In this document: positions 4,467 to 12,219 of the stretch, in pieces
How positions within the stretch are numbered: position 1 is the stretch's first letter
Layout of the letters: every line of letters begins with the position of its first letter
From: a virus
Lineage: Duplodnaviria > Heunggongvirae > Uroviricota > Caudoviricetes
DNA length: 12,219 nt
Virus record (IMG/VR): IMGVR_UViG_2545824708_000010
Location: 1-12,219 of that record
Reading direction: 5' to 3' (one strand)
The notes under the pieces: model-generated
Databases searched by the model: none
Told to the model about the DNA's origin: nothing
What the model saw: only the letters and a program-made list of their open reading frames with translations
Program-made: the position numbers and the translations under genes

Positions 4467-5183
4467 ATGGAAAATAAAAAATCACTGACGACAGAACAGC
4501 TGGAAGACGCTAAGCGGCTTAAGGCTTTGTATGAGTCAAAAAAGAAAGAATTGGGAATAACCCAATACTCAATCGCTGATGAACTGGGTATCACCCAAGG
4601 AGCGGTAGGGCATTATCTTAATGGCAGAAATGCGCTAAACGTTGAGGTTGCATCTGGTTTTGCACGATTGTTGCAAGTCTCAATTGCTGATTTTAGCCAG
4701 TCAATTGCTGCCAAGGTTGCAGAACAGGCAGAAAGCCTTAAGAGCGATGCCAACGTAAGGTATGCAGGGGAATACAGAGCAGGAAAGAGGTATCCGGTGT
4801 TAAGCAGTATCCAGGCTGGCTCGTGGTGTGAAGCATGCGAACCATACACCATTAAAGACATAGATGTTTGGCTTGAGTCTGACGCGCATATTCAAGGTAA
4901 TGCGTTCTGGCTTAAAGTGGAAGGTGATTCAATGACGGCACCGGTTGGGTTAAGCATTCCAGAGGGAACATTCGTTCTTTTCGATACCGGAAGGGAGGCG
5001 ATCAACGGCAGCTTGGTCATAGCAAAACTTTCTGACTCTAACGAAGCAACATTCAAGAAGCTGATAATCGACGGCGGAAATAAATACCTCAAGGGACTTA
5101 ATCCTGCATGGCCTCTCGTGCCAATCAATGGAAACTGCAAGATTATAGGCGTTGCAATTGAGACAAAACTAAGGCTGGTTTGA
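4467..5183 (+). CDS. cI: CI-type prophage repressor (HTH DNA-binding domain plus S24 LexA-like autopeptidase domain)
   Basis: N-terminus LTTEQLEDAKRLKALYESKKKELGITQYSIADELGITQGAVGHYLNG resembles lambda CI. The C-terminal domain has Ala-Gly (YAGEY), the GDSM serine and the FKKL lysine, and resembles the recalled P22 C2 C-terminus (FWL.V.GDSMTAP.GLSIPEG...NEATFKKL...NGNCKIIGV). Confidence 0.93.
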   Translation: MENKKSLTTEQLEDAKRLKALYESKKKELGITQYSIADELGITQGAVGHYLNGRNALNVEVASGFARLLQVSIADFSQSIAAKVAEQAESLKSDANVRYAGEYRAGKRYPVLSSIQAGSWCEACEPYTIKDIDVWLESDAHIQGNAFWLKVEGDSMTAPVGLSIPEGTFVLFDTGREAINGSLVIAKLSDSNEATFKKLIIDGGNKYLKGLNPAWPLVPINGNCKIIGVAIETKLRLV

Positions 5184-5200
5184 TCACGCAAGGGGCGATT

Positions 5201-5569
5201 ATGGTTGGAACCGCTATAGCAAGCTTTTTTGGGATGTTGGCAATCTCGACAATTTACGGCTTAGCGCATGCTTTTATTGCGAAATCTCTATCAGAAAAAA
5301 TAAGCCAGGCTTGGGCGCATAGATCAGCTCGTTTCATGATTCTAGTGATCATAGCAATACAAGGGATATCTGCATTTATCCTCTATGGTTCAAGCTTATA
5401 CCTGTTGTATCAAGGCGCGACATTTACGCCTTACACCAGTGATTACGGAACTCTATACGATGGTAGTGAAGACATCTCTATGGCTTGGATTGTCTTTGGT
5501 TTATCTATGGCCGTGTCTGTTGTAGCAGATATCATTAAGGTAATTCTCGTCTTAACCTTCGCTGACTAA
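5201..5569 (+). CDS. Small multi-pass membrane protein cotranscribed with cI (rex/sie position)
   Basis: ATG at 5201 with an AGGGG ribosome-binding site, 18 bp after the cI stop. 122 aa with 3-4 hydrophobic segments (AIASFFGMLAISTIYGLAHAFIA, FMILVIIAIQGISAFILYG, MAWIVFGLSMAVSVVADIIKVILVLTF). The ORF-track start at 5180 is a TTG overlapping the cI stop. Confidence 0.6.
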   Translation: MVGTAIASFFGMLAISTIYGLAHAFIAKSLSEKISQAWAHRSARFMILVIIAIQGISAFILYGSSLYLLYQGATFTPYTSDYGTLYDGSEDISMAWIVFGLSMAVSVVADIIKVILVLTFAD

Positions 5570-6273: not shown

Positions 6274-6546
6274 ATGACAGTAGTCATTACATATCTGGCT
6301 GACGATAACGCCAGAAATCGCCGCAGAGCACGCAGACAGGCTCAACGTGAACAGGCAATGCAAGAACAGCGACTGGCGCGAAAAATTGCGCTAAAGCTCT
6401 CTGGTTGCGTCAGAGCAGACAAAGCAGCATCACTCGGAAGCCTTCGCTGCAAGAAGGCAGATGAATGCAGTGGAAGTATTTGCCTGCCAAACGTAGCCAT
6501 TTACGCGGCAGGCTACCGGAAATCAAAACAACTGACGGCGAGGTAA
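6274..6546 (+). CDS. N: N-like transcription antitermination protein
   Basis: 90 aa. First gene downstream of PL/nutL, with a GGAGG ribosome-binding site. N-terminal arginine-rich motif NARNRRRARRQAQREQA, as in lambdoid N proteins. Confidence 0.75.
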   Translation: MTVVITYLADDNARNRRRARRQAQREQAMQEQRLARKIALKLSGCVRADKAASLGSLRCKKADECSGSICLPNVAIYAAGYRKSKQLTAR

Positions 6547-6548
6547 TT

Positions 6549-6941
6549 ATGGGTCAGGAAGAAAAATATGAGCTTAAAAAGCTCATTGAAGAAGACGCCA
6601 TAGAAGAAATTGCAGCATTAACAACAGCTATAAATAATATTAGGTATGCGCTAAATACGCTTATCTCCTCATGCGACAAAAATAGCAGGGAATTTTTGAT
6701 ACTTGGCGCAGCTCTAGGAATAGTTGATGCGGCAACGCTTCACCTAATTACTCATGACGATATTCTTATTGAGCCGTATGAAACATTACTGCTTGTCAGG
6801 CAAAAAATGGCTGATGCCGCAGCAAATGGAGACCTTCAACTTTACATCGACTTAAGGAAAGTATTAAGGCGAATGGTCAGAACTGAAGGAGATATCCCAC
6901 TGAGCGATGCTAAACAAGGCATACAAGCAAAGCTGGAATGA
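6549..6941 (+). CDS. Hypothetical protein (130 aa) in the early-left operon
   Basis: ATG at 6549 with a GAGG ribosome-binding site, starting 3 nt after the N stop. The ORF-track start at 6465 would overlap N. No motif recognised. Confidence 0.6.
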   Translation: MGQEEKYELKKLIEEDAIEEIAALTTAINNIRYALNTLISSCDKNSREFLILGAALGIVDAATLHLITHDDILIEPYETLLLVRQKMADAAANGDLQLYIDLRKVLRRMVRTEGDIPLSDAKQGIQAKLE

Positions 6942-7346: not shown

Positions 7347-7517
7347 ATGCAACAGTTCGCTATTGCAGGGGCGGCATCGGTTCGCCCTTTCAACCCGATT
7401 TTATCGGTACAGCATTCACGAAAAAATATTTTAACCGGAGCAGACTTTAAACAACCAAGAATGAAAAGCTTGCTCGAAAAGCTTTGGGATATTTTGAAAC
7501 AACAAGGCCGTCCATGA
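7347..7517 (+). CDS. cIII: CIII-like small protein (56 aa; candidate FtsH inhibitor that stabilises CII)
   Basis: Strong AAGGAG ribosome-binding site 6 nt upstream. N-terminus MQQFAIAGAA and SLLEKLWDILKQQGRP resemble recalled lambda CIII (MQYAIAGWPVAG...SLLERITRKLRDGWKRLIDILNQPG). Position after N fits. The ORF-track start at 7242 is judged to be upstream read-through. Confidence 0.5.
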   Translation: MQQFAIAGAASVRPFNPILSVQHSRKNILTGADFKQPRMKSLLEKLWDILKQQGRP

Positions 7518-7543
7518 GTTTTACCAATAAGGGGAGCAAGTAA

Positions 7544-8635
7544 ATGGCTATTCAGACTAAAACATTGCAGGTACGCGTCAAAGACCGCCACGCCGCCTTG
7601 TTGCGTCAGATGGCCTTTGAAGTGAACCAAGTTTTTAACTTTATCAATGAAATGACTGCGACTGAATACAGCACTGTCAGCGAATACGGACCAAAACAAA
7701 GAGTTTGGTTAACTGAATTTGACGTAGATAAACGCATTGCTGGTATTCAAAAGGAGCGCGGATACCACATACAAGCAGCTACTTGTCAGGAAATCTCAAA
7801 ACATCACGCTAAAGCGCGTAAACAGTTTAAACGCAGTAAGCTGCGCTGGCGTAAAAGTGGCGGTGCTGGGCGTAGTCTTGGTTGGGTTCCGTTCAAAGGT
7901 GCTCAAGTGAAATGGGTAAACGGCTGCATCAAGTTTGCCGGGCACTATTTCAAAGTGTGGGATAGCTATGGATTAAATGGCTTTAAATTCCGTGCTGGTA
8001 ACTTTGCAGAAGATGCGCGCGGTCGCTGGTATTTCAATGTTGCAGTTGAATACGAATGCGAACCAACTAAAGGCACTGCCGACGTGGGTATCGATCTTGG
8101 TCTGAAAGACATTGCCACCACTTCGGATGGTGAAAAACTTCCTGCTAAACGTTGGTATCGTGAATTAGAAGGCAAATTAAAAATTGCTCAACGTGCCCAT
8201 AATAAAAAACGTGTTAGAGCTATCCACGCAAAAATCAAAAATCGCCGTAAAGATGCACACCATAAGTTTTCTACGGCGCTGGTTAATAAATACGCCGCTA
8301 TTTTTGTAGGCGACGTAAGCAGTAAAAAGTTATCAAAAACAAATTTGGCAAAAAGTATCTACGACGCCGGCTGGTGTCAGCTAAAAAATCAGATTCAGTA
8401 TAAAGCGATTGCGCGGAGTGTGGTTTTTGAGGTCGTAGATGAAGCGTACACCACCCAGACTTGCTCGTGCTGCGGAGCTATTAGCTGCAGTAGTCCGAAG
8501 GGTAGGGTAGGCCTTGGAATAAGAGAATGGATCTGCGTGGAATGTGGTGAACTCCACGACCGCGACGTAAACGCGGCAAAGAACATTCTCGCGGCGGGAC
8601 ATCGCCGTCTCGAAGGAGGAATCCACGCCCTTTAG
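7544..8635 (+). CDS. tnpB: TnpB-family protein (IS200/IS605 OrfB-type RNA-guided nuclease fold)
   Basis: 363 aa with a GGGGAG ribosome-binding site. RuvC-I VGIDLGLKDIATTSDG; an acidic residue in IFVGDVSS at the RuvC-II position; C4 zinc finger CSCCG...CVECG; RuvC-III HDRDVNAAKNI. Confidence 0.9.
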   Translation: MAIQTKTLQVRVKDRHAALLRQMAFEVNQVFNFINEMTATEYSTVSEYGPKQRVWLTEFDVDKRIAGIQKERGYHIQAATCQEISKHHAKARKQFKRSKLRWRKSGGAGRSLGWVPFKGAQVKWVNGCIKFAGHYFKVWDSYGLNGFKFRAGNFAEDARGRWYFNVAVEYECEPTKGTADVGIDLGLKDIATTSDGEKLPAKRWYRELEGKLKIAQRAHNKKRVRAIHAKIKNRRKDAHHKFSTALVNKYAAIFVGDVSSKKLSKTNLAKSIYDAGWCQLKNQIQYKAIARSVVFEVVDEAYTTQTCSCCGAISCSSPKGRVGLGIREWICVECGELHDRDVNAAKNILAAGHRRLEGGIHAL

Positions 8636-8643
8636 GGCGTGGA
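8622..8643 (+). other. Perfect hairpin at the tnpB stop codon (candidate right-end or guide-RNA scaffold element)
   Basis: TCCACGCCC-TTTA-GGGCGTGGA, a 9-bp perfect stem around a 4-nt loop that contains the TAG stop. Confidence 0.5.
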
Positions 8644-8901
8644 GGATGTCAAAGATAACTGGTCAGACAAAGAATTCATTCGTCAGATGAAAGAATTAAT
8701 CGGTAACGAAGGAGATATGCATGTCACTTGCAACCACAGTGAAGGAGAGCAAGTTACAGAGACGCATGTACACGCAGAAAGCTCTCTGGTATCGCCATAA
8801 TGGCGACCGCGAAGGAATGCGGGTATGCCTTAATTTGTCCCGAGTCGAAGTATTAAATCAGCGTTATTTCCTTGGGCCATGTCCATTCTGAGAACAATCA
8901 T

Positions 8902-9507
8902 ATGAGCAAAGAATTTTACGCAAGACTGGCAGCTATTCAGGAGAATCTGAACGCGCCAAAGAATCAGTACAACTCATTCGGCAAATATAAATACAGAAGC
9001 TGCGAAGACATTCTTGAAGGCGTTAAGCCGTTACTGAATGGCCTGTTTTTATCAATCAGCGATGAAGTTGTGCTGATTGGTGATCGGTATTACGTGAAAG
9101 CCACGGCAACTATTACCGATGGCGAAAACAGCCATACGGCAACCGCTCTTGCACGAGAGGAAGAAAGCAAGAAAGGAATGGATTCTGCACAAGTTACGGG
9201 AGCTACAAGCTCTTATGCACGCAAGTATTGCCTCAATGGTTTGTTCGGCATTGATGATGCGAAAGATGCAGATACCGACGAGCATAAACATCAGCAGAAC
9301 GCAGCAGCAAAGCAATCAAAACCATCACCTACACCTGAACAGGTTCTAAAAGCATTCACTGACGCAGCATTGCAGAAAAACACCGTAGAAGAGCTTAAAC
9401 AGGCGTTCGCCAAAGCGTGGAAGATGCTCGAAGGCACACCGGAGCAGCACAAAGCACAGGACGTTTACAACATCAGACGAGACGAATTAGAAGGAGCGGC
9501 TGCTTAA
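8902..9507 (+). CDS. erf: Erf-family single-strand annealing recombinase (P22 Erf-like)
   Basis: From the first ATG: MSKEFYARLAAIQENLNAPKNQYNSFGKYKYRSCEDILEG..., which matches my recollection of P22 Erf. Its stop overlaps the ssb start (TAATG). The ORF-track start at 8872 is a TTG. Confidence 0.8.
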   Translation: MSKEFYARLAAIQENLNAPKNQYNSFGKYKYRSCEDILEGVKPLLNGLFLSISDEVVLIGDRYYVKATATITDGENSHTATALAREEESKKGMDSAQVTGATSSYARKYCLNGLFGIDDAKDADTDEHKHQQNAAAKQSKPSPTPEQVLKAFTDAALQKNTVEELKQAFAKAWKMLEGTPEQHKAQDVYNIRRDELEGAAA

Positions 9508-9890
9508 TGGCACATTCGATTACTGTAAGACTAAACAAGCCCGCAAGAGAGTTTCAGGCCGGGGAAAATATCGGATTCAACATCCGTGCTGGCGTTCAGT
9601 ATTACGATCGCCAGACAAAAAAGAAAGAATGGACAAACTACAGCGCCGTTGTATTTGCCAAGCCGGGAGCGCAAGCGGATTACTACCGTAGTGTTCTTGT
9701 TGAAGGTGGCATTGTGGAAATTACCGGAGAAAACATCAGGGTTGATGTTTATCAGGGGCAAAATGGTCAATCAATCACTCTTGAATTACTGAATGCAAAG
9801 ATTGGATTTGCAACTTCAGGAAACAGCCAACAGCAGCAAAGTAGCAATCATCAAAATCATCCTGAATACGACGATTCAATTCCCTTCTAG
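9507..9890 (+). CDS. ssb: Single-stranded DNA-binding protein (short phage SSB)
   Basis: 127 aa. Predicted OB-fold N-terminus, a Q/S/N-rich linker and a C-terminal acidic tail DDSIPF (E. coli SSB ends DDDIPF). Translationally coupled to erf. Confidence 0.8.
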   Translation: MAHSITVRLNKPAREFQAGENIGFNIRAGVQYYDRQTKKKEWTNYSAVVFAKPGAQADYYRSVLVEGGIVEITGENIRVDVYQGQNGQSITLELLNAKIGFATSGNSQQQQSSNHQNHPEYDDSIPF

Positions 9891-9913
9891 ATTAGCAAAA
9901 TAAGGATTCCATT

Positions 9914-10207
9914 ATGCCAGCGCCTCTGTATGGTGCGGATGACCCGCGCCGCTGTTCCGGCAATTCCGTATCGGAGGTGCTGGATAAATTCAGAAAAAAC
10001 TACGATCGAATAATGTCTCTACCGCAGGAAACGAAAGAGGAAAAGGAGTTTCGCCACTGCATATGGCTTGCAGAGAAAGAAGAACGAGAGCGAATTTACC
10101 AGACATCAATCCGACCATTCCGCAAAGCCACATATACCCACTTCCCTGAAATCGACCCGCGCCTGCGTAATTACCGCTCACGCTATGGCGCTATCAGTAA
10201 TGACTGA
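9914..10207 (+). CDS. abc2: Abc2-like protein (candidate anti-RecBCD function)
   Basis: 97 aa with an AAGGA ribosome-binding site. Size and position immediately after erf/ssb match P22 abc2. The sequence identity is from uncertain recollection. Confidence 0.5.
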   Translation: MPAPLYGADDPRRCSGNSVSEVLDKFRKNYDRIMSLPQETKEEKEFRHCIWLAEKEERERIYQTSIRPFRKATYTHFPEIDPRLRNYRSRYGAISND

Positions 10208-10217
10208 GGAATTAACA

Positions 10218-10508
10218 ATGAAAACAATGAAGCTAAACATCGACCTCGGAAAATACGTTATTACCGGAACAAAACACGATCTGATTCTTAGCGAAAGAGG
10301 AATTATCAAAGAAGGCGAGAATGCAGGGAAAGAAACACTAAGCCGTATCGGTTATTACAGCAAGTTTGAGCATCTGGTTAAAGAGTTATGCAACCGTGAA
10401 ATCCTGTTATCTCAGGCGCAGACGCTACAGGATATTCAGCAGCATATCGAGACTTTAGGTGTGTCACTTAGCATGGCTATTGACCAGTTCGTGGAGAGTA
10501 AATCATGA
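10218..10508 (+). CDS. Hypothetical protein (96 aa) at the abc1 position
   Basis: ATG at 10218 with a GAGG ribosome-binding site 8 nt upstream. The ORF-track start at 10068 would overlap abc2. Confidence 0.5.
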   Translation: MKTMKLNIDLGKYVITGTKHDLILSERGIIKEGENAGKETLSRIGYYSKFEHLVKELCNREILLSQAQTLQDIQQHIETLGVSLSMAIDQFVESKS

Positions 10509-10666
10509 GAGGTCTTGCATACAATCCCGGCATTCTTCCGGCAGAAATGATTATTCGCCAACGCGTATAAGCCAATGCCATCGAGAGAGGAATTGCTTAA
10601 GAGAAATTCTTTTCCATCAGTGAATCAAAACAAATATCTGAATGCGATGTGGCGGAGTGGGAAGAA

Positions 10667-11110
10667 ATGAAACAAATGTCACTAATTGAGATGGATGGAT
10701 TTCTGAAAGGTAAATGCATCCCAAGTGATTTAAAGGTTAACGAAACAAACGCTGAATATCTGGTGCGTAAGTTCGGTGAACTTGAATCAAAACTAGAAAC
10801 AGCGTTGCGTGAGTGTCGTTCTGCTGGAATCACGATTGATAACCTTGAGGCCAAGTGCGCGGCGCTGGCTGTGGAGAATGCGGGGATGAAAGAATATCTA
10901 GCTCCAGTAGGGTTAGTGGTAGAGGGAACCCCAGCCACCGACGCCTTCCTGGCTGAAGTGCGGGCGCAGGGTGTGGAGATGGCTCGTAACGCGATGATTG
11001 ATTTTGTTGATGGTGAAGTTGGGCCAAACAAGAACGTTCCGGGGCTGATTAGAGGCGCAGAGATATGCGTAAGTATTGCTGCCCAGCTTCGCAAAGGAGG
11101 CAACCAATGA
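10667..11110 (+). CDS. Hypothetical protein (147 aa)
   Basis: ATG at 10667 with a GGAG ribosome-binding site. The ORF-track start at 10649 is a GTG. Stop overlaps the next gene's start. Confidence 0.55.
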
Positions 11111-11388
11111 GCGTAATCCAGTACGTAGTTAGAGATGCAGGCACGTTTCCTGAGGATGCGTTTTTTCTCGATCCTCGACACATCGATGAGCTCATTTCTG
11201 AGTGGGAATTGGAATGCTTGTCTCAGGATGCCTCCCTTGATTATTTTGACAATCATGACGGCTTGGAATCTGACTGGCCGTTGGATATCGAGCTATTCAT
11301 TGACGGTGAGAGCGTAGGTGTATTCACGGTTGAAATGGAACATGTACCTCAATTCAGCGCAAGAAAAATACCGGAGGCCGCCCAATGA
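11107..11388 (+). CDS. Hypothetical acidic protein (93 aa)
   Basis: ATG at 11107 with an AGGAGG ribosome-binding site. ATGA overlap with the following gene. Confidence 0.55.
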   Translation: MSVIQYVVRDAGTFPEDAFFLDPRHIDELISEWELECLSQDASLDYFDNHDGLESDWPLDIELFIDGESVGVFTVEMEHVPQFSARKIPEAAQ

Positions 11389-11915
11389 GCAACATCGACA
11401 AACGCGCATTACGTCATAGCGCAGAAAGCATAATCGGCATTCTGGAAAACATTGCCGGGTTCGAACCATCTGATATCGACGGCGACTCTGTAGAGCTCCG
11501 CTTTGAAACTGAGGACGGTTTCGATACTGGTTGTGACGTTAGCATTGTTGACCAGTGCCAGAAAACCGCTGATGTAGTTCGGGCGCTGCTGGATGAGCTG
11601 GAAAGAAACCAGCAATACATCAAACGCCGCGATCAGGAGAACGAGGATATTGCGCTAACGGTAGGGAAGCTGCGCGTTGAGCTTGAAGCAGCAAAATCAA
11701 AACTCAACGAGCAGCGTGAATATTACGAGGGAGTAATCGCGGATGGAAGTAAGCGCATAGCAGAACTGGAGGAGCGGGAAATACTGCTCCCGGAACGTAG
11801 CAGCATGCTTCATCGAACAGATTTTCACGAGGATTACCAAACGGTAATGGCATACAAAGTTTCTGAAGTCATCGATGCAATCCGCGCTACTGGCATTCGC
11901 ATCAAAGGAGAGTGA
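11385..11915 (+). CDS. Hypothetical protein (176 aa) with probable coiled-coil segment
   Basis: ORF-track ORF, translationally coupled to the preceding gene. Central heptad-like stretch ELERNQQYIKRRDQENEDIALTVGKLRVELEAAKSKLNEQREYYEG. Confidence 0.6.
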   Translation: MSNIDKRALRHSAESIIGILENIAGFEPSDIDGDSVELRFETEDGFDTGCDVSIVDQCQKTADVVRALLDELERNQQYIKRRDQENEDIALTVGKLRVELEAAKSKLNEQREYYEGVIADGSKRIAELEEREILLPERSSMLHRTDFHEDYQTVMAYKVSEVIDAIRATGIRIKGE

Positions 11916-11916
11916 T

Positions 11917-12219
11917 ATGAGCGCTATAACCAAAGAACGTGTCGAATTATTCATTAAAAATCCGCTTGATAACGGACTTACCCGTGGCGAACAAATGGAA
12001 CTGGCACGAATTGCACTGGCATCGCTGGAAGCAGATCCAGTTAAACGAGTTAACTCAGATCAGATGCGCCGAGTCTGCTTAGAAGCTAATCGCCATTTAG
12101 ATAAATATGACGCGATGGCGAAAGAGGTAAATAAGTTGCTTGGACGCATCGCCCCGCCAGCGCCGGTAGTGCCGGAAGAAGCAACTCCGGAAAACGTAGA
12201 AATGCTCTCTGGCTATGTT
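11917..12219 (+). CDS. Hypothetical protein, 5' part only (runs off the right edge of the window)
   Basis: ATG at 11917 with an AAAGGAGAG ribosome-binding site, 2 nt after the previous stop. Open for 101 codons to the window end. Not in the ORF track because it lacks a stop. Confidence 0.5.
   Translation, partial: MSAITKERVELFIKNPLDNGLTRGEQMELARIALASLEADPVKRVNSDQMRRVCLEANRHLDKYDAMAKEVNKLLGRIAPPAPVVPEEATPENVEMLSGYV

Follow-up and report, generated by a model that had tools for sequence, protein, structure and literature searches.

Four open reading frames at the 3' end of the window (the whole 12,219-nt stretch of DNA analysed) represent genuine genes: they are conserved and belong to the accessory gene set of a lambda/P22-like E. 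coli prophage. Three of the four fall into named families, namely EaE/HkaH/Oad2 (ORF1), Ead/Ea22 (ORF3) and EaA/DUF551 (ORF4), and ORF2 alone is truly unplaced. We consider it probable that the block acts as a pL-driven, translationally coupled and recombination-shuffled eaE-(insert)-eaD-eaA cassette for counter-defence and host modulation, carried by an E. coli prophage of mosaic, HK97/P22-like type. Few parts of lambdoid phages are still as poorly understood as the ea/exo-xis accessory region, which is now being recognised as a counter-defence hotspot, situated beside recombination genes that trigger host immunity. Apart from the Oad2-family allele and the ORF2 family, the block has the usual make-up of a mosaic prophage cassette.

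Gene content and operon context

Table 1. Coordinates of the block, its conserved junctions and the genes immediately 5' of it.
Feature	Position	Strand	Description
abc2 (anti-RecBCD)	9914-10207	+	PF11043 at 6.1e-64
DUF5405 gene	10218-10508	+	PF17399 at 1.9e-5
DUF2737 gene (HK620 hkaI / HK97 gp38 / P22 orf56-like)	10505-10670	+	frameshifted; HK620 and E. coli chromosome alignment
ORF1	10667-11110	+	147 aa
Conserved junction 1 (ORF1 C-terminus QLRKGGNQ, Shine-Dalgarno, ATGA)	11083-11112	+	14 loci compared with the window by local blastn; protein alignment
ORF2	11107-11388	+	93 aa
ORF3	11385-11915	+	176 aa
Conserved junction 2 (ORF3 end, Shine-Dalgarno, ORF4 start)	11886-11919	+	local blastn against 14 loci
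ORF4	11917-12219, open at the window end	+	first 101 codons

The reality of the four genes was assessed through homology and selection. Homologues were found for each frame, the frames are kept in related prophages, and dN/dS in the called frames lies between 0.10 and 0.22, with ORF2 at 0.10, indicating genuine genes under purifying selection. The initial annotation had proposed that frame conservation be examined in related phages; this comparison found the frames conserved, and the claim of genuine genes stands. ORF4 is truncated by assembly and not by biology, since the window is the whole 12,219-bp contig APZJ01000152.1. An antisense ORF of 219 aa (10597-11256) had no family match and was rejected as a gene.

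Inspection of the gene junctions reveals an ATGA overlap between ORF1 and ORF2 (11107-11110) and another between ORF2 and ORF3 (11385-11388). ORF3 and ORF4 meet at TGAtATG (11913-11919), where the TGA stop at 11913-11915 is followed, after a 1-nt gap, by the ATG at 11917. All four starts are preceded at 7-10 nt by a Shine-Dalgarno sequence (GGAG for ORF1, AGGAGG for ORF2, GGAGG for ORF3 and AGGAG for ORF4). The overlaps and good ribosome-binding sites described initially are therefore correct, but the 2-nt separation given for the last pair is not. Across ORF1-ORF4, the combination of an overlap or gap of at most 1 nt with a Shine-Dalgarno sequence inside the upstream gene is that expected of a translationally coupled polycistron, in which ribosomes would be handed from gene to gene via the ATGA overlaps. 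A scan of 8600-12219 for sigma-70-like promoters gave none, against 4.3 expected; no terminator-like site was found inside the block, and Rfam returned no RNA family anywhere in the window.

The block lies at the distal end of an early-left operon. The plus-strand order in the window is cI, N, cIII, Erf and Abc2, followed by ORF1-ORF4, an arrangement that fits the proposed co-expression and points to transcription from pL. The same order as in the block is found in P22 (eaE-eaD-eaA), in HK620 (hkaH-hkaG-hkaE) and in at least 12 other loci, and the operon layout is alike in P22 and HK620. This synteny, together with the cI-N-cIII-Erf-Abc2 genes on the 5' side, bears out the placement of the block in an ea-type accessory region. 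Window positions 8653-10890 align with HK446 as a single piece at 95.7% identity. The ea modules also occur behind different recombinases (Erf, Rad52, RecT and Sak4), and in one genome they adjoin replication genes far from any recombinase.

The presumed coupled chain begins 5' of ORF1 and runs through Abc2, DUF5405, DUF2737 and ORF1; in relatives, the DUF2737 stop overlaps the start of the ORF1-like gene by ATGA. In the present copy, a 1-bp insertion in the DUF2737 gene (an extra T at ~10568) produces a TAA stop after 21 codons, and sister loci carry an intact 54-aa gene called with PF10930. An IS200/IS605-type tnpB element is also present in the pL operon, 17 nt into a gp33-like gene and with tnpB on the operon strand; this insertion is common to several otherwise intact-looking loci. 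The frameshift and the IS element, which may reflect decay or assembly errors, make the expression of the present copy uncertain.

Family assignment of the block proteins

The profile searches that had been recommended placed ORF1 in phrog_614, ORF2 in phrog_20438, ORF3 in PF13935 and full-length ORF4 in PF04448. The initial description of four unknown ORFs thus holds for ORF2 and needs qualifying for ORF1, ORF3 and ORF4. PDB sequence searches with the single proteins and the ORF2 family profile returned nothing significant, Pfam and NCBIfam returned nothing for ORF1 or ORF2, and no nucleic-acid-binding or enzymatic domain was detected in the block proteins. PADLOC (E <= 0.01) gave no defence-protein match for ORF1-ORF4, nor for the proteins encoded at 5180-5569, 6465-6941, 9507-9887 and 10218-10505.

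ORF1 matches phrog_614 at 1.1e-48, the family of HK97 gp37, HK620 HkaH, P22 EaE and HK446 gp27, and its homologues form more than 7600 clusters. By blastp, ORF1 is 62% identical to HkaH and 33% identical to EaE. HK446_027 is 56% identical to ORF1 (E 3e-57), rising to 93% over the first 75 aa, and both proteins keep a 14-residue motif and the QLRKGGNQ end. Both genes also occupy the same slot, directly 3' of the DUF2737 gene in an erf-abc2 early locus. ORF1 is the shortest allele seen of this highly polymorphic family. The variation is concentrated at residues 76-87, where identity falls to 22% and length ranges from 12 to 89 aa, flanked by blocks that are 92-95% identical; a hypervariable segment of this kind resembles the signature of an arms race. 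The AF2 model of ORF1 is all-alpha and of low confidence (pLDDT 64, pTM 0.32), and on this model ORF1 is predicted to be an all-helical, coiled-coil-type protein. Ead_Ea22 is matched by one of 32 ORF1 homologues; ORF1 itself was rejected as an Ea22 paralogue, having no detectable similarity to ORF3 or lambda Ea22.

A biochemical activity has been reported for one member of the ORF1 family. HK446 gp27, named Oad2 (OLD anti-defence 2), is reported to bind the P2 abortive-infection nuclease OLD directly and to block OLD toxicity and defence; it is related to P22 EaE, and fusions with HNH or EaD/Ea22 were noted (10.64898/2026.07.10.737580). This result comes from one recent, non-peer-reviewed preprint (July 2026), and gp27 is equated here with the locus tag HK446_027 by number, position and EaE similarity. 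Both fusion types are seen among the ORF1 homologues. The homology of ORF1 to a phage protein reported to inhibit the OLD nuclease fits the host-interaction or anti-defence role suggested initially for such genes. In the same study, an HK75 homologue 54% identical to Oad2 did not inhibit OLD (10.64898/2026.07.10.737580). ORF1, at 56%, is as distant from Oad2 as this inactive homologue, and may therefore have another target or none.

ORF2 is the strongly acidic protein noted initially (pI 4.05; 22 D+E versus 4 K+R). It matches phrog_20438 at 4e-44, as do all 66 tested relatives, and it carries the family core motif AEDYxxNHDGWExxWP...PxFSA except for a Trp53-to-Leu change. The family is uniformly acidic, with a median pI of 4.28 and a net charge of -13 among 155 members, and comprises at least 484 representative clusters at 50% identity. 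Its members are spread through phages of Enterobacterales, Acinetobacter, Xenorhabdus, Bordetella and Vibrio and one candidate-phyla-radiation (Shapirobacteria) genome. Neither P22 nor HK620 nor lambda has a counterpart of ORF2, which occurs in one of 5426 complete E. coli genomes and separates the eaE-like from the eaD-like gene as a rare insert. The AF2 model (pLDDT 81) predicts a beta-alpha-beta3 arrangement. Searches found no Pfam entry, solved relative or fold relative for the family, and nothing useful was found in the literature on the NHDGWE motif.

Remote ORF2 homologues sit in phage early recombination/methylase loci, for example ExoX-ERF-SSB-X-Dam in Xenorhabdus, where they adjoin ERF, SSB, ExoX or AAA_24 (Sak4-like) genes. 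An ORF1-like gene lies next to an ORF2 homologue in Enterobacter prophages (40% and 84% identity, respectively) and in Klebsiella phage VLCpiS13d (28% and 55%). A search with phmmer beside remote ORF2 homologues detected no relatives of ORF1, ORF3 or ORF4, except weakly in VLCpiS13d, so a strict ORF1-ORF2 functional pair is not established; a genome search with the trimmed ORF2 core alignment returned six genome loci only. As a tentative and rather speculative proposal, phrog_20438 could be an unrecognised, widespread class of inhibitors that are expressed early and act on a host protein of defence or DNA metabolism; in enterobacterial prophages the family sits beside, and perhaps works with, an Oad2-type gene. 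ORF2 is the only fresh lead of the block, and a modest one. As a conserved family of small acidic proteins lacking annotation anywhere, phrog_20438 is a cheap candidate for anti-defence screens.

ORF3 is the protein for which a coiled coil had been noted. Its score against the Pfam Ead_Ea22 profile PF13935 is 94.2 bits, above the cut-off of 27, with residues 2-129 aligned to profile positions 1-139. Its residues 47-133 are 74% identical over 87 aa to residues 20-105 of lambda Ea22 (E 4e-40), a region that is mostly central coiled coil. Blastp gives 45% identity to HkaG and 80% identity over 44 aa to EaD, and the last ~55 aa show 95% DNA identity to HkaG. That is to say, ORF3 is a three-part protein with an N-terminal domain of its own, a lambda-Ea22-like coiled-coil core (~47-133) and a short HkaG-like C-terminal domain. 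Beyond residue 133 no alignment to the lambda Ea22 C-terminal domain and no PDB sequence match was found. The literature describes this domain as the variable part of the family, and lacking the lambda type thus does not exclude ORF3 from Ead/Ea22.

The complete ORF4 was read from a copy in another E. coli chromosome that is 100% identical over 623 nt, and is 267 aa long. In this full-length copy DUF551 (PF04448) covers residues 198-263 at 77.3 bits against a cut-off of 22; the domain lies past the contig end. The ORF4 N-terminus is 66-80% identical to EaA and HkaE by blastp.

Mosaic structure and proposed role of the block

The mosaic structure of the block is evident at its gene borders and within ORF3. 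Junction 1 is 93-97% identical in loci where the flanking DNA is unalignable on at least one side (HK620; second junction in L002), and is likely, to judge by the alignments, to be a mosaic recombination joint. Junction 2 is 94-100% identical in loci that differ on both sides. Within ORF3, mosaic breakpoints fall at ~11603, 11696 and 11783, and the exact ORF3 allele was found on four contigs only. Diversification may proceed by recombination at conserved gene junctions of ~30 bp and within the coiled-coil core.

Under the counter-defence and host-modulation reading, infection or induction would lead to N-antiterminated transcription through the erf, abc2, DUF5405 and DUF2737 genes into the block. 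ORF1 would most likely bind an abortive-infection nuclease of OLD type (ABC-ATPase/TOPRIM), or a similar one, and keep it inactive; without ORF1, the genes with which the phage modulates RecBCD (abc2, gp33-like) would trigger this nuclease. The hypervariable middle and C-terminal segments of ORF1 probably determine target specificity. For ORF2, the most likely role would be that of a second inhibitor, with a host protein as its target, which may itself bind nucleic acid. ORF3 is pictured as an Ea22-type coiled-coil oligomer with exchangeable end domains that, by analogy with lambda Ea22, could tilt the lysis/lysogeny balance to lysogeny, and ORF4 as an EaA/DUF551 protein drawn from the same module pool. 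The Ea22 literature supports a lysogeny-related phenotype and not counter-defence, which counts against this explanation. Literature searches on DUF2737, on exo-xis with anti-defense and on HK97 gp37/gp38 found nothing useful.

A possible, though clearly less probable, alternative is that the main role of the block is regulatory, in phage development and host physiology, with a pro-lysogenic Ea22-type protein, DUF551 and its neighbours acting on stress and replication initiation, and ORF1 and ORF2 as further modulators of lysis/lysogeny. Lambda Ea22, a tetramer of three-part architecture, is reported as pro-lysogenic, and cell-cycle effects as well as an inhibition of DNA replication in the host have been connected with the exo-xis region (PMC10834534). 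In prophage CPS-53, the DUF551 protein YfdS has been associated with tolerance of H2O2 and, together with YfdQ and YfdR, contributes to inhibition of oriC initiation (PMC4776307). Regulation is thus consistent with the Ea22 coiled-coil core in ORF3 and with DUF551 in full-length ORF4. However, ORF3 and lambda Ea22 have different end domains, and it is the C-terminal domain that distinguishes functional variants according to the Ea22 literature. The sole biochemical activity reported directly in the ORF1 family is that of inhibiting a defence nuclease, and hypervariability and module swapping are more in keeping with an arms race than with conserved regulation. Regulation and counter-defence are not mutually exclusive.

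It is improbable that the four genes serve the adjacent recombination module (erf, an SSB-like gene and abc2) as accessory factors and directly aid recombination or replication of the phage, for example by modulating RecBCD or loading the annealing protein. The position immediately 3' of erf, abc2 and the DUF5405 gene favours such a role, as do the recombination genes beside remote ORF2 homologues and the PHROG labels of neighbouring families (phrog_154, 'replication initiation protein'; phrog_2123, 'recombinase'). These labels are annotations and not tests, however, the variety of recombinases beside ea modules shows that the modules are not tied to one recombination system, and the block proteins lack a detectable nucleic-acid-binding or enzymatic domain. 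Least probable of all is that a decaying prophage carries the block as silent cargo, the frames intact by inheritance and no longer expressed or useful in the present genome: the DUF2737 insertion, the tnpB element in the operon and the lack, in sister loci, of an integrase in the interval from the xis-like gene to the csc genes of the host suggest decay, but all four frames are intact, family-level dN/dS is low, the IS element is shared with intact-looking loci, the frameshift may be a sequencing error given that sister assemblies with the intact gene are 99.9% identical, and a tnpB on the operon strand should be no barrier to N-antiterminated transcription.

Comparison with known systems

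The closest functional reference for the preferred counter-defence reading is HK446 Oad2, in which the hypervariable segment spans ~44 aa by pairwise alignment, compared with 12 aa in ORF1; the segment after the TPATD motif also differs between the two proteins. ORF1 is a new minimal Oad2/EaE allele; set against the active HK446 Oad2 and the inactive HK75 homologue, it could help to map target specificity.

ORF3 shares its three-part layout and operon position with lambda Ea22, P22 EaD and HK620 HkaG. Its N-terminal domain is longer than, and unrelated to, that of lambda Ea22, and its C-terminal domain of ~43 aa is unrelated to the lambda Ea22 domain solved by NMR. Full-length ORF4 has its DUF551 C-terminus in common with P22 EaA, HK620 HkaE and E. 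coli CPS-53 YfdS, whereas in its middle region it carries another module (phrog_5117/660-like). DUF551 is fused to Ea22 itself in some Stx phages, in contrast to the present block, where DUF551 is in the separate gene ORF4. By analogy only, ORF2 resembles Ocr, ArdA, some anti-CRISPRs and Dmd in its small size, early locus, strong and conserved negative charge and simple alpha/beta fold.

Gene order and reality of the four-gene block

The window is the whole of contig APZJ01000152.1 (12219 bp) in the E. coli draft assembly GCA_000356905.1; it covers the immunity and early regions of a mosaic lambdoid prophage. Because the plus strand runs from cI through N and cIII to the DUF2737 gene and ORF1-ORF4, it follows the pL (early-left) direction, with the block at its far end. 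In related prophages (sister loci), the order continues with a DUF551 gene, an EaG/Lar-like gene and a TorI/Xis-type gene, followed by host DNA.

Features of the window and candidate exchange joints of the block
Feature	Position	Strand	Remark
NinB-like, DnaB-type helicase, O-like, cII-like, Cro-like ORFs		minus	named by eye from translations
cI	4467-5183	plus	
N	6274-6546	plus	
cIII	7347-7517	plus	
IS200/IS605-type tnpB	7544-8635	plus	
gp33-like gene	8639-8800	plus	
Erf	8902-9507	plus	ATG start
SSB-like 127-aa gene	9507-9890	plus	
Abc2	9914-10207	plus	
DUF5405 gene	10218-10508	plus	
DUF2737 gene	10505-10670	plus	ORF1-ORF4 directly after
ORF1	10667-11110	plus	
ORF2	11107-11388	plus	
ORF3	11385-11915	plus	
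ORF4	11917 to window end	plus	
~30-bp junction	11083-11112		gene end, ribosome-binding site, next start codon
~30-bp junction	11886-11919		gene end, ribosome-binding site, next start codon

The four-gene finding is real, and all four reading frames of the initial annotation are present. ATGA overlaps join ORF1 to ORF2 and ORF2 to ORF3 as described, but the gap between ORF3 and ORF4 is 1 nt (TGAtATG) rather than 2. Ribosome-binding sites GGAG, AGGAGG, GGAGG and AGGAG lie 7-10 nt before the respective ORF1-ORF4 starts. The frame called strongly acidic is ORF2 (pI 4.05, 22 acidic versus 4 basic residues), and the one credited with a coiled coil is ORF3, which shares the coiled-coil core of lambda Ea22. 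Loss of the frames in related phages had been named as a refutation; inspection of these phages reveals that the frames are kept. Nei-Gojobori dN/dS, computed in the called frames, indicates purifying selection, with values of 0.10 for ORF2 (versus an Enterobacter copy), 0.15-0.22 for the N-terminal half of ORF1 (versus HK446 and HK620) and 0.16 for the ORF3 coiled coil (versus lambda ea22). No promoter-like site was found in 8600-12219, where 4.3 are expected by chance, and no terminator-like site within the block. A 219-aa antisense ORF (10597-11256, minus strand) overlaps ORF1 and part of ORF2, has no PHROG phage-family match and faces conserved plus-strand frames; it is most likely a shadow frame.

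Several features upstream of the block were also noted. For Erf, a mechanical ORF list gives TTG 8872 as the start, whereas HK446 and sister-locus gene calls place it at ATG 8902 (201 aa). The 127-aa gene between erf and abc2 is the equivalent of HK446 gp31; it lacks a Pfam match and matches only the C-terminal part of phrog_44, the PHROG single-strand-binding family (profile positions 89-228). Relative to HK620 and an E. coli chromosome, the DUF2737 (hkaI/gp38-like) gene has an extra T at ~10568 and stops after 21 codons, while sister assemblies 99.9% identical carry an intact 54-aa gene; the 1-bp insertion is either a recent pseudogene mutation or a sequencing error. With this frameshift, ORF1 translation would no longer be coupled to that of the DUF2737 gene. 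The IS200/IS605-type element (~7531-8652) has tnpB only (363 aa; OrfB_IS605 and Cas12f1-like_TNB domains), and Rfam returned no RNA family there. The element lies ~17 nt inside the homologue of HK446/HK75 gp33, which is reported to trigger the OLD nuclease, and its insertion replaces the first codons of that homologue; several other E. coli assemblies have the same insertion.

Family membership of ORF1 and ORF2

ORF1 (147 aa) has no match in Pfam or NCBIfam, but matches phrog_614 at 1.1e-48 and has homologues in more than 7600 90% clusters (126-231 aa), with EaE as the annotation in several phage records. Identity is 62% to HK620 HkaH, 59% to HK97 gp37 and 33% to P22 EaE (E 4e-8). Phage HK446 matches 8653-10890 in one piece at 95.7% identity, and its HK446_027 (175 aa) fills the ORF1 slot directly after the DUF2737 gene. 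The two proteins are 56% identical overall and 93% over the first 75 residues, keeping a 15-residue motif and a C-terminal QLRKGGNQ in common, whereas the middle and the post-motif segment differ. Among the best 120 homologues, ORF1 residues 1-75 and 88-103 are 92-95% conserved in contrast to 22% for residues 76-87, a segment of 12 to 89 aa of which ORF1 has the shortest version. The AlphaFold model of ORF1 is all-helical and of low confidence (pLDDT 64).

HK446 gp27, which we match to HK446_027 by number, position and EaE similarity, is reported to have been recovered from a genomic library as the inhibitor of the P2 OLD abortive-infection nuclease and was named Oad2; through direct binding to OLD it keeps the OLD tetramer from being activated, and gp33 of HK75 and HK446 triggers OLD (bioRxiv preprint, July 2026, 10.64898/2026.07.10.737580). 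The same study relates Oad2 to P22 EaE, describes fusions with HNH nucleases or EaD/Ea22 proteins, and reports no OLD inhibition by an HK75 homologue 54% identical to Oad2 (10.64898/2026.07.10.737580). Both fusion types occur among ORF1 homologues, as 226-aa proteins named 'hNH endonuclease' by NCBI and one Ead_Ea22-positive member. Judged by sequence, ORF1 adds a new allele to the Oad2/EaE/HkaH family.

Alone in the block, ORF2 (93 aa) has no counterpart in P22, HK620 or lambda. Its close relatives, those with 76% identity or more, fall into only 10 clusters, from E. coli and Enterobacter hormaechei. ORF2 DNA is present in 1 of 5426 complete E. coli genomes, with gene order unchanged, and no isolated phage was found with ORF2 at >55% identity. 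An exhaustive profile search (E <= 0.001) gives a family of 484 representative clusters, mostly 80-110 aa, with the core motif AEDYxxNHDGWExxWP ... GxFxVExExxPxFSA. Each of the 66 members tested matches phrog_20438 (unknown function), and they have no Pfam family in common. Acidity is uniform across the family (median pI 4.28, median net charge -13, n=155), and the fairly confident AlphaFold model of ORF2 (pLDDT 81) comprises a strand, a long helix and a three-stranded sheet. Remote members lie in early regions of other temperate phages: within ExoX-ERF-SSB-X-...-Dam in one Xenorhabdus prophage, after AAA_24 and a methyltransferase in an Acinetobacter prophage, and beside C5 and D12 methylases and MazG on a metagenomic contig. 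An ORF1-like gene (40% identity) directly precedes ORF2 (84%) in Enterobacter prophages. Klebsiella phage VLCpiS13d keeps this adjacency weakly, with 55% identity for ORF2 and 28% across the C-terminal half of ORF1, and more distant family members do not have it.

Two further observations concern this family. Codon 53 of ORF2 (11263-11265) is TTG (Leu), where relatives encode the near-invariant Trp of NHDGWE; this Leu53 allele is the commonest close variant, on 35 contigs. In a Xenorhabdus santafensis prophage (L019:3203-3391), a 62-aa Cys-rich ORF directly downstream of a remote ORF2 homologue resembles by eye a TraR/DksA-type zinc finger (cf. lambda Orf73, exo-xis region), with no Pfam hit.

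ORF3, ORF4 and mosaic structure

ORF3 (176 aa) passes the Pfam Ead_Ea22 threshold of 27 with 94.2 bits. Ea22 is described as tetrameric and pro-lysogenic, its coiled coil lying between a short N-terminal region and a variable C-terminal domain (PMC10834534). Residues 20-105 of lambda Ea22, most of the central coiled coil, are 74% identical to ORF3 residues 47-133, while HK620 HkaG shares 95% DNA identity with the C-terminal ~55 residues and P22 EaD 80% identity over a 44-aa stretch. The first ~65 residues are a different N-terminal variant, and the exact 176-aa allele is on only 4 contigs in the collection.

Only 101 codons of ORF4 lie inside the window. E. coli strain 602687 has a copy with 100% identity across the 623 nt compared, and this gives a 267-aa protein with a DUF551 domain at residues 198-263 (77.3 bits versus 22). 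Compared with P22 EaA and HK620 HkaE, the N-terminus is 66-80% identical and the DUF551 part 45-60%. Three independent assemblies break inside this gene (window end 12219 and loci L012 and L013), probably because DUF551-type sequence is repeated, with up to 9 copies per complete E. coli genome; the contig end at 12219 is thus probably a repeat-induced assembly gap. In strain 602687 (L014:3526-4804), another type of phage carries the same C-terminal two-thirds of Ea22 together with an identical DUF551 gene, whose 267-aa frame PGAP annotates as two genes, one of them 'partial'. There the modules lie downstream of DnaT-like and P replication genes and upstream of a small terminase subunit, so the early-left operon is not the only place where ea modules occur.

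In none of the phage records or complete E. coli genomes is 80% or more of 10400-12219 found together, although 2965 of the 5426 genomes contain parts of it. Breakpoints inside ORF3 fall at ~11603, 11696 and 11783 in different sister loci, and ORF2 travels with the ORF3 N-terminal variant as one module (11113 to ~11600) that stands in place of the HK620 HkaG N-terminus. Both ~30-bp junctions are 93-100% identical despite unrelated coding DNA on one or both sides (e.g. HK620); these junctions and the conserved coiled-coil core resemble joints for module exchange.

Possible roles of the block

The analysis establishes that the genes are real, as well as their families, synteny, mosaicism and purifying selection; from these we infer expression, coupling, targets and activity of the ORF1-ORF4 alleles as follows. 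The block would act as a translationally coupled cassette expressed early from pL, with products that bind host proteins. ORF1 would most likely block an OLD-type or similar abortive-infection nuclease that senses RecBCD interference, a role in keeping with its position beside abc2 and the gp33-like trigger gene. ORF2 would be a second, acidic inhibitor and ORF3 an Ea22-type oligomeric scaffold that favours lysogeny, while ORF4 is an EaA/DUF551 module from the same pool.

The main rival is that the block serves to regulate lysis/lysogeny and the physiology of the host, not to counter defence. This reading agrees with the Ea22 literature and with that on YfdS of prophage CPS-53, a DUF551 protein associated with H2O2 tolerance and, along with YfdQ and YfdR, with inhibition of replication initiation (PMC4776307); it is also compatible with an anti-defence reading. 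The copy in the window might instead be silent, as the DUF2737 frameshift and the IS element would suggest, but near-identical sister assemblies lack the frameshift and the IS is common to several loci. A role as recombination-accessory factors has less in its favour, since these ea modules are found behind Erf, Rad52, RecT or Sak4 recombinases and in one case beside replication genes.

The anti-defence cassette remains our preferred reading, and the initial interpretation of an ea-type accessory region with likely host-interaction or anti-defence roles is supported as a whole. Its description of the four ORFs as unknown holds for the ORF2 family, which lacks annotation in any library searched and is the sole fresh lead of the block. 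It does not hold for the other three genes, which belong to named families, one with a newly reported anti-defence member: in gene order, ORF1, ORF3 and ORF4 are the counterparts of eaE-eaD-eaA in P22 and hkaH-hkaG-hkaE in HK620.
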